From: Escherichia coli O127:H6 str. E2348/69
GTDB taxonomy: Bacteria; Pseudomonadota; Gammaproteobacteria; Enterobacterales; Enterobacteriaceae
Assembly (NCBI RefSeq): GCF_000026545.1
Contig: NC_011601.1
DNA: 64,000 bases
Direction: 5' to 3' (one strand)
In this document: positions 21,001-24,000 of the stretch, piece after piece
Layout: each line of letters opens with the position of its first letter
How positions within the stretch are numbered: the stretch's first letter is position 1
Program-made: the position numbers

Positions 21001-24000
21001 CTCCATAAAACAAAACTCGCCGTAGCGAGTTCAGATAAAATAAATCCCCGCGAGTGCGAGGATTGTTATGTAATATTGGGTTTAATCATCTATATGTTTT
21101 GTACAGAGAGGGCAAGTATCGTTTCCACCGTACTCGTGATAATAATTTTGCACGGTATCAGTCATTTCTCGCACATTGCAGAATGGGGATTTGTCTTCAT
21201 TAGACTTATAAACCTTCATGGAATATTTGTATGCCGACTCTATATCTATACCTTCATCTACATAAACACCTTCGTGATGTCTGCATGGAGACAAGACACC
21301 GGATCTGCACAACATTGATAACGCCCAATCTTTTTGCTCAGACTCTAACTCATTGATACTCATTTATAAACTCCTTGCAATGTATGTCGTTTCAGCTAAA
21401 CGGTATCAGCAATGTTTATGTAAAGAAACAGTAAGATAATACTCAACCCGATGTTTGAGTACGGCCATCATCTGACACTACAGACTCTGGCATCGCTGTG
21501 AAGACGACGCGAAATTCAGCATTTTCACAAGCGTTATCTTTTACAAACCCGTATTCCTGCTCATATCATTCTCCTTTGATGCGAATGCCAGCGGCGCGGA
21601 TAGATTTCCATTGTTCCCATATGCGGTTGAAGTCTGTTCCTGATAAGGTCGCGTTACGGTATCCAGTTTCGGTGCGCAATCCTTCAAGCGTCGATTTGGA
21701 AATACAAATTGAATGCATTACCCATGATTCGAACAAATCACGCTCCCGGGCTTCGCAACTTTGCTTACTCATCTCTTCGATACGTTCAGCCATCGCAGCA
21801 CACTCTTCAAAGTTACTTAATGCTTTTCGCTCCCATTCGGCGCATTGTTTTCCAAGCTCTGCAATCAGCTTGTCTTTGCCTTCCAGCTCAACTCGCAGCT
21901 TCCCTACCGTTAGCGCAATATCCTCGTTCTCCTGATCACGGCTTTTGATGTATTGCTGGTTTCTTTCCCGTTCATCCAGCAGCGCCAGCACGGTAGCTGG
22001 ACTGGCTGCGGCGATGAATTCAGCATTGGCCTGCTGTTCCATTTGGAAATCTTCATCGAAACCGCTTTCAGGATGCGCTCCTTCAATTATGCAAATGGGA
22101 ATATATCCAGCAGCCTCGCGATGAATTAGCGCATCATCACAATCAAATCGGCTCTCTCCATATTCGAGCGACCATACACCACACGTTGCTTTTTCTGCCT
22201 TGGCACGCAGTGCCTCATAGTCAATCTTGCTCACTGGTTGCCTCCTTTGCGAATCTGTTCCGCCCATTCTTCAAGGGATTTCTCCGCATATTCACCGGAC
22301 AGGCCATCAATCGGGTGCAGTTCATTAGCCAACTCTTCTTTCGCTGACAGAATCATGCGTGTAACGTCGAAAACTTCACGCAAAGACTTATTGATAAATC
22401 CGTGGTTGAAAGCAGCAGCAAGACGGCTGGCGGTATAGTTAATCCCCTCGTTGCGTGCTTCTGCACGAATTTCAGCCAGAAAAGCATCGGTAGCTGGGGT
22501 GTCTGATTGCAGAAACTTTGCGCGATAGTCATTCCACCCTCTTGCATACATGGGATTAACTTGCACTCCATCTTTTACGCAATATGCCTGCCCTCCACGG
22601 TTGATAACCTTGATTTCGTCCATAGCGCCAGACTTCAGCCCCGCATTCTCCGCTGCCAGCGCCGCGCACTTGGCCTCAGCTTCAGCAAATTTACGCACCA
22701 TATATTCAGCATTTGTTTCGTTAACCTTTAAATCACATGAGATGCATTTACCTTTCAGAAATCCATCCATCTCAATTAGTGTCATTCGTTTCATTTCTTC
22801 CCACTCCGCCACATCGCATTCAGATATTTGTTTTGATTCACTGACGGAGAAGAATTTCTCTTAAGCAATTCCTCTCTCGATGGCATTGGCTTTACGCGTT
22901 GGCGAATAATCATTTCTGCCGGAAGAATGCCGGGATTGTATGCAAGTCCTCTCATGGTAAATTCCTCAGTCATTACTGATAGCGCCATAGCGTGAGCGGT
23001 AATTACGCAGGCGCGGGTCAATTTCAGGGAAGTGTGTATATGCGGCTTTGCGGAATGGTCGTATTGATGTCTGGTAAATTCGCTCTCGTTCTTCTTTCTC
23101 TGCAAGCCATATACAGTGGCGAAATTCCTTTTCCTCTTTCGTTTCCTGCGGTAGCGACATTATCCGGTCGTAGTTTTTCCTGAATTTATCCAGCACCTCC
23201 GATACGGAATTGCCGGAACAGCGGCGCGGGTCATCCGCACCATACTGAGGCGCTGGCATGATTTTCTCCTGATTAAATTGCGTGAATAGCGTGACGAGGG
23301 AAGGGGAGAGTTACTGGTGCAAAGGGTATATCGTCGTCAAAATCCATCGGAGGTTCGTTGTGTTGTGCTGGTGATGATTGCTGCTGTGGCTTCTGTGATT
23401 GCCTGCTGGCTGCTTGTTGTTTGCTGTCGCCAATGCCGCCAAGCATTTGCATCACGCCATTAATTCCGACATGAACCTCGGTTGTGTAACGGTCTTGCCC
23501 TGACTGGTCTTTCCACTTTCTGGTTCTCAGCATTCCCTCGAAATAAATCTGATCACCTTTTTTCACATACTGCCCCACGACCTCAGCCAGTTTCCCGGAT
23601 ACAGCAACACGATGCCATTCAGTCAATTCCTTTTGCTCGCCAGTATTTTTATCTCGCCATTGTTCTGACGTGGCTATTGTCAGGTTAGCGAACGCTGTTC
23701 CTGATGGTGAGTATCGAACTTCCGGGTCTTGTCCTACCCGACCAAGGATAATCACCTTATTTACGCCTCTGCTTGCCATTTATGCTGCCTGTTTTAGTTC
23801 GTTAACTCTGATGTTCATTACCTGAACACATTTAGCCTGCGCCTCCTCGTTGCCAGCCATTAATTGCCAGTCACGCTGATAACGCTCGATGAGTTTTTTC
23901 TTGTCAGTTTCTGTCGCTGCATAATCGCTGAAGTCTTTCAGGATTTGTTCGCAGTCAACCGATGGAGATTTCTGGTTGGTATTTTCTGGTGATGGTTTGT

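Follow-up and report, generated by a model that had tools for sequence, protein, structure and literature searches.

An open reading frame identical to bacteriophage lambda ea8.5 in a mosaic lambdoid prophage of Escherichia coli O127:H6 E2348/69: a small acidic protein with a predicted zinc site

A mosaic lambdoid prophage adjoining torS in EPEC O127:H6 E2348/69 carries, at positions 21082-21363 on the minus strand of the window that we analysed (a stretch of 64,000 nucleotides from contig NC_011601.1, in which window position equals NZ_LT827011.1 record position minus 1,024,000), an open reading frame that, judged from its sequence, is essentially certain to be the bacteriophage lambda gene ea8.5, carried unchanged. 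In our reading the gene would be expressed with the leftward early operon and would encode a zinc protein that biases the phage towards lytic growth by acting on a protein partner; taken as a whole (identity, expression, zinc protein, lytic bias, and partner mechanism), we consider this explanation very likely to be correct. The finding is already known, and it is real but ordinary: ea8.5 has decades of annotation in the lambda genome, a Pfam family of its own, and homologues with solved structures, which leaves the present copy little discovery value.

Between this coding sequence and its counterpart in the lambda genome (NC_001416, positions 29374-29655) we found no nucleotide difference in 282 nt, and the encoded protein is 100% identical to lambda Ea8.5 (NP_040611; lambdap36). 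With a 451-nt query around the gene, identity was 99.8% to lambda and to its close relatives HK630, DE3, O276, 4W, and PhiR11_1. A preliminary description of this DNA had reported a 93-aa ORF with the same limits, which are exactly those of an ATG-to-stop frame with the stop included. It had also called the product a protein of unknown function, a label that does not hold for a member of a well-known conserved phage family. The profile search that it had proposed as a check returned a single Pfam match, to PF20735 (Lambda_ea8_5, 'Bacteriophage lambda ea8.5-related domain'), of which lambda ea8.5 is the founding member; the match spans profile positions 1-90 of 90 and scores 164.3 bits (E = 1.1e-48) against a curated gathering cut-off of 27 bits. 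In PHROGs the product matched phrog_6325 (E = 8e-54), which is annotated as function unknown, and NCBIfam has no model for ea8.5 or orf55. The gene, its flanking elements, and the predicted zinc ligands are listed in Table 1.

Table 1. Features of the ea8.5 region of the prophage, in window coordinates
Feature	Position	Strand	Remarks
ea8.5 coding sequence	21082..21363	minus	93 codons plus stop; ATG start; from ORF listing, lambda identity, Pfam, and PHROGs
Shine-Dalgarno sequence AAGGAG	21371..21376	minus	strong; 7 nt before the ea8.5 ATG; read from the minus-strand sequence
Two tandem G+C-rich terminator-like hairpins, each followed by a T-run	21043-21064 and 21013-21032 (span 21013..21064)	minus	between the ea8.5 stop and the orf55 start/ribosome-binding site; from terminator scan
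Non-coding spacer, 202 nt	21364..21565	minus	from the ea22-like gene to ea8.5; 99-100% identical to lambda up to ~21500
Mosaic module	~20450..21560	minus	97-100% identical to lambda; int 5' end, xis, orf55, ea8.5, and spacer
Rad52/Erf-type gene	23780-24487	minus	P22-like recombination module
ssb	23273-23779	minus	P22-like recombination module
abc2 (anti-RecBCD)	22966-23259	minus	P22-like recombination module
Ead/Ea22-like genes	22231-22812 and 21566-22267	minus	193 aa and 233 aa; overlap of ~37 nt
orf55	20826-20993	minus	lambdap35 homologue, phrog_676; in the lambda-identical module with ea8.5
xis	20568-20786	minus	downstream of ea8.5
int	19517-20590	minus	downstream of ea8.5
Cys27 codon, predicted zinc ligand 1	21283..21285	minus	Cys in 51/51 homologues; aligns with Cys in 2M7A and 2M7B
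His30 codon, predicted zinc ligand 2	21274..21276	minus	His in 50/51 homologues; aligns with His in 2M7A and 2M7B
Cys84 codon, predicted zinc ligand 3	21112..21114	minus	Cys in 51/51 homologues; aligns with Cys in 2M7A and 2M7B
Cys87 codon, predicted zinc ligand 4	21103..21105	minus	Cys in 50/51 homologues; aligns with Cys in 2M7A

On the opposite strand, a long TTG-initiated ORF of 131 aa (20923-21318, plus strand) overlaps ea8.5 and could be taken for the true gene, or the minus-strand frame could be open by chance. We give these alternatives virtually no credence, as the ea8.5 frame follows a strong Shine-Dalgarno sequence, belongs to a curated Pfam family, with 73 homologues (E <= 1e-3) in a collection of 1.84 billion cluster representatives, counts two homologues with solved structures, and has been seen expressed by published RT-qPCR. 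The antisense ORF had no family match and was ruled out as a real gene.

The genes at this end of the prophage are transcribed on the minus strand in the order Rad52/Erf-type gene, ssb, abc2, two Ea22-like genes, ea8.5, orf55, xis, int, prophage end, and torS. In lambda, the leftward early operon runs from pL to ea22, ea8.5, orf55, xis, and int, and the prophage has this same order from ea22 to int, with all genes on one strand. This order places ea8.5 within the exo-xis region of the pL operon, on the int-xis side. The preliminary description had set the ORF downstream of int and xis, which is right in plus-strand coordinates only, since transcription of the minus strand puts ea8.5 before orf55, xis, and int; its placement of the ORF in the b-region was mistaken. 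The b-region runs from the tail-fibre genes (J, lom, stf) to attP, which in a prophage is the end opposite int. At that far end, after lom and a tail-fibre gene, the plus strand holds an NleG-like DUF1076 gene, nleB2, nleC, an nleH fragment, an IS256 fragment, and nleD (60403-64000), and this slot is the true b-region-equivalent accessory site.

Likeness to lambda extends to both sides of the gene. The prophage and lambda copies are the same in coding sequence, protein, and Shine-Dalgarno sequence; the spacer and the downstream DNA through orf55, hairpins included, are 97-100% identical; and the neighbours correspond, with an ea22-type gene upstream and orf55 and xis downstream. Only the carrier differs, being here a mosaic prophage at torS with an int body 61-76% identical to lambda int, with P22-like recombination genes (Rad52/Erf-type, ssb, abc2) where lambda has exo, bet, and gam, and with the type III effector cargo nleB2, nleC, and nleD. 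A comparison with lambda by 100-nt sliding identity delimited the lambda-like module of Table 1, outside which identity falls to the level just given for the int body on one side and to ~30%, mostly unalignable, in the Ea22-like gene on the other. The module has sharp edges, inside int on one side and at the ea22-type gene's 3' end on the other, that look like mosaic recombination joints; this is ordinary lambdoid mosaicism.

Three observations concern the neighbours themselves. With a P22-like recombination module in place of exo, bet, and gam, the 'exo-xis' region of this prophage is one without exo. Of the two consecutive Ead/Ea22-like proteins (233 aa and 193 aa), the first alone exceeds the cut-off of Pfam Ead_Ea22; both have a match in phrog_368, and elsewhere the Ea22 family is divided among several different PHROGs. 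orf55 has no Pfam family, and a modelling paper has proposed for its product a T7 Gp2-like RNA polymerase inhibitor fold (PMC8614690).

The non-coding DNA downstream of ea8.5 contains the more conspicuous structure. The RNA fold of positions 20994-21090 reached -27.7 kcal/mol (z = -4.17), and none of 200 shuffles did as well; the two hairpins within it sit in a stretch 97-99% identical to lambda and, from their sequence, may end transcription that N has not modified ahead of orf55, xis, and int. In the upstream spacer we found no minus-strand sigma-70 consensus site that would mark a promoter for ea8.5 and no unusual RNA structure (z = -0.37), and Rfam and tRNA scans gave no match near the gene. 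From its position in the leftward early operon, ea8.5 would be expected as a delayed-early product, made after infection or induction. In published work on lambda the gene is part of the pL-controlled exo-xis region, its mRNA was found by RT-qPCR after both infection and induction, and expression has also been reported in uninduced lysogens.

We next consider the protein. A sequence search of the PDB matched Ea8.5 to 2M7A (E = 2.5e-18) and 2M7B (E = 1e-3), which are the NMR structures (Kwan et al. 2013, Biochemistry 52:3612) of the EPEC O111:H- ORF ECO111_1119 and of Pseudomonas putida PP_3909, respectively. Identity to Ea8.5 is ~40% for 2M7A (35-40% by method) and 21-28% for 2M7B, and Ea8.5 has two extra, non-conserved cysteines (C19 and C62) that are both missing from 2M7A. 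The two structures are described as a hybrid homeodomain/zinc-finger fold with a core that their authors judged homeodomain-like (PMC8614690). An AlphaFold2 model of Ea8.5 built on the homologue alignment (mean pLDDT 86.8) has helices at residues 3-21, 41-54, and 64-78, a hairpin (24-26/34-36) bearing C27 and H30, and, after C84, a C-terminal helix (85-92), and it has its helical core, hairpin, and C-terminal helix as in the solved family members. Foldseek returned significant matches of the model to 2M7A and 2M7B only. On this model, Ea8.5 is predicted to be a stand-alone acidic protein of ~10.6 kDa, built of three main helices together with a small beta-hairpin and, at the C-terminus, a short helix.

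The translation has five cysteines (positions 19, 27, 62, 84, and 87) and four histidines (29, 30, 76, and 90). We assessed their conservation in an alignment of 51 full-length distant homologues with 26-61% identity to the query. The preliminary description had proposed a small zinc-binding fold on two cysteine pairs, C19/C27 and C85/C88. Its first two positions are correct, yet they do not make a conserved pair, the C19 position being Cys in 8 of the 51 homologues and otherwise mostly V, L, or I; the second pair was counted one residue too far, and the fifth cysteine, C62, was overlooked. At the C62 position the homologues mostly have E, D, S, or Q, with Cys outside the six commonest residues, and H29, H76, and H90 are not conserved. 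Only C27, H30, C84, and C87 are invariant or nearly so, and the predicted site is therefore Cys27-x2-His30 ... Cys84-x2-Cys87. The zinc-binding fold itself is thus supported, by these four candidate ligands and by the hybrid homeodomain/zinc-finger fold of the homologues, with a different set of ligands from the one first given. Homology, conservation, and the model together suggest that a single zinc on these residues would clasp the hairpin region to the C-terminal helix. Conservation also extends to A14, A44-Y45-K/R46, and F61, and to the motif R65-E/D-M-T-D69, with which the third helix begins.

The core of three alpha-helices in the Ea8.5 model may resemble that of eukaryotic-type homeodomains and bacterial three-helix HTH DNA-binding domains, and the protein might on that account be a sequence-specific DNA-binding transcription factor that uses this core as a helix-turn-helix and directly represses the promoters paQ and pI. 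We regard this as quite unlikely. Homeodomains are basic, whereas Ea8.5 has a net charge of -8 and a pI of 4.81, and across its family the whole-protein charge has a median of -8 and is net negative in 48 of 51 members. The Pfam search matched no homeodomain or HTH family, the model places a beta-hairpin between helices 1 and 2, and the predicted zinc site would tie on a fourth helix. No DNA target of Ea8.5 is reported in the literature that we searched. Because both the protein and its family are strongly acidic, Ea8.5 is probably not a sequence-specific DNA-binding homeodomain.

Published genetics points to a regulatory role that the phage can do without. Among the exo-xis genes, ea8.5 has the strongest single-gene effect on phage development (PMC10789677), and by CRISPRi it is non-essential (PMC10695390). 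In multicopy it represses paQ markedly, pI slightly, and pE negligibly or not at all (PMC7093339), and it impairs lysogenisation; a frameshift in ea8.5 within a multicopy exo-xis plasmid delayed phage development after peroxide induction. In multicopy, the reduced activity of paQ and pI, both of them CII-dependent promoters, together with the poorer lysogenisation would amount to a push towards lytic growth, which would make Ea8.5 a dispensable modulator of the lysis-lysogeny decision. The promoter effects were obtained in multicopy and are weaker than the effects seen with the complete exo-xis region, and may therefore be indirect.

As to mechanism, we tentatively propose, with somewhat less than even confidence, that Ea8.5 works as an acidic adaptor, stabilised by zinc, and biases development towards lytic growth by binding a partner protein, for instance some part of the CII/RNA polymerase activation pathway or a different regulator. 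The acidity found throughout the family and its variable genome position argue for seeking a protein partner of Ea8.5 and not a DNA site. By yeast two-hybrid, putative partners of Ea8.5 are Int, Q, Ren, Stf, Tfa, and Ea8.5 itself, from a study in which Ea8.5 is named as one of seven proteins that were promiscuous and less reliable (PMC3224144). Ea8.5 also resembles the Orf73 and TraR-DksA C4 zinc proteins, in that these are small, zinc-binding (a property predicted for Ea8.5), non-essential early products of the exo-xis segment that are thought to reprogram transcription. The site is C4 in Orf73/TraR and Cys-His-Cys-Cys in Ea8.5, which forms the separate Pfam family PF20735, and in Orf73/TraR an acidic N-terminal helix enters RNA polymerase, whereas no RNA polymerase interaction is known for Ea8.5.

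The breadth of the family emerged from the exhaustive search of the 1.84 billion cluster representatives, which supplied the distant members; a word-indexed search gave close relatives and fragments only. The 73 proteins found are mostly stand-alone and 87-115 aa long. Among the longer matches there was no informative domain fusion, four of them consisting of an Ea8.5 domain with unannotated extensions, and two apparent fusions of 837 aa and 2595 aa were rejected as repeat proteins, that is, false positives. The distant members occupy varied genome positions: at three loci the gene lies in the nin region, with replication genes on one side and Q/RusA on the other (upstream of ninB or of RusA/Q), at a fourth between the large terminase and portal genes, and at a fifth beside non-phage genes, with no phage hallmarks.

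Of 5,426 complete E. coli genomes, 245 carry the allele itself, in every case with at least 99% identity, and full-length Ea8.5 was found in only 21 of 50,697 phage records, all 100% identical; it is rare but invariant. One record, 'Campylobacter phage CJLB-4' (MW057783.1, 48,361 bp), has a 100% identical ea8.5 at lambda-like coordinates and looks like lambda itself, through contamination or mislabelling. In another, 'Xanthomonas phage vB_XooS_NR08' (OQ055246.1), a stretch of 125 nt matches the ea8.5 upstream spacer at 99% identity.

Accessory slots as varied as the nin region and the terminase-portal interval are moron-like, and a small, acidic, non-essential, stand-alone protein with no informative fusions could be one that acts on the host: it could perturb cell division via MinE or, as an acidic inhibitor or mimic, neutralise a defence protein of the host or one that binds nucleic acids. 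MinE is indeed a putative two-hybrid partner of Ea8.5, and older work connects synchronised division of host cells with the exo-xis region (PMC8614690). However, the MinE match comes from a bait flagged as promiscuous (PMC3224144), and we found no experimental anti-defence phenotype of Ea8.5 in the literature searched. PADLOC models likewise gave no match for ea8.5, for orf55, or for either Ea22-like protein, which is a weak test, the library being one of defence systems rather than anti-defence proteins. We consider action on the host unlikely; if Ea8.5 did neutralise a host protein, its effects on CII-dependent promoters would be indirect. An extension of this idea to the whole family, as a mobile, acidic, zinc-clasped protein-binding module that temperate phages would put into varying slots (exo-xis in lambda, the nin region in other lambdoid phages, the terminase-portal interval elsewhere) and that neutralises a host protein (a defence or nucleic-acid-binding factor, or MinE) instead of serving as a transcription factor, seems to us rather improbable.

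Whether as an adaptor in the lysis-lysogeny decision, the role that we favour, or otherwise, ea8.5 may never act in a productive cycle of this prophage, which may be defective. In RefSeq both the tape-measure gene (48810-51865) and the tail-tip gene J (54256-57970), on the plus strand, are frameshifted, and the ORF list has them in two and three pieces, respectively; judged from these sequences, the prophage is probably defective for particle formation.

The host gene torS (16679-19422, minus strand), which adjoins the int end of the prophage, is likewise frameshifted in RefSeq; the break lies close to the 3' end of torS and well away from the junction with the prophage. The tRNA scan found no tRNA gene in the window. 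The only Rfam match at gathering level in the window (156 bits) was a cspA thermoregulator (14550-14972, plus strand), which corresponds to the 5' leader and coding region of cspG.
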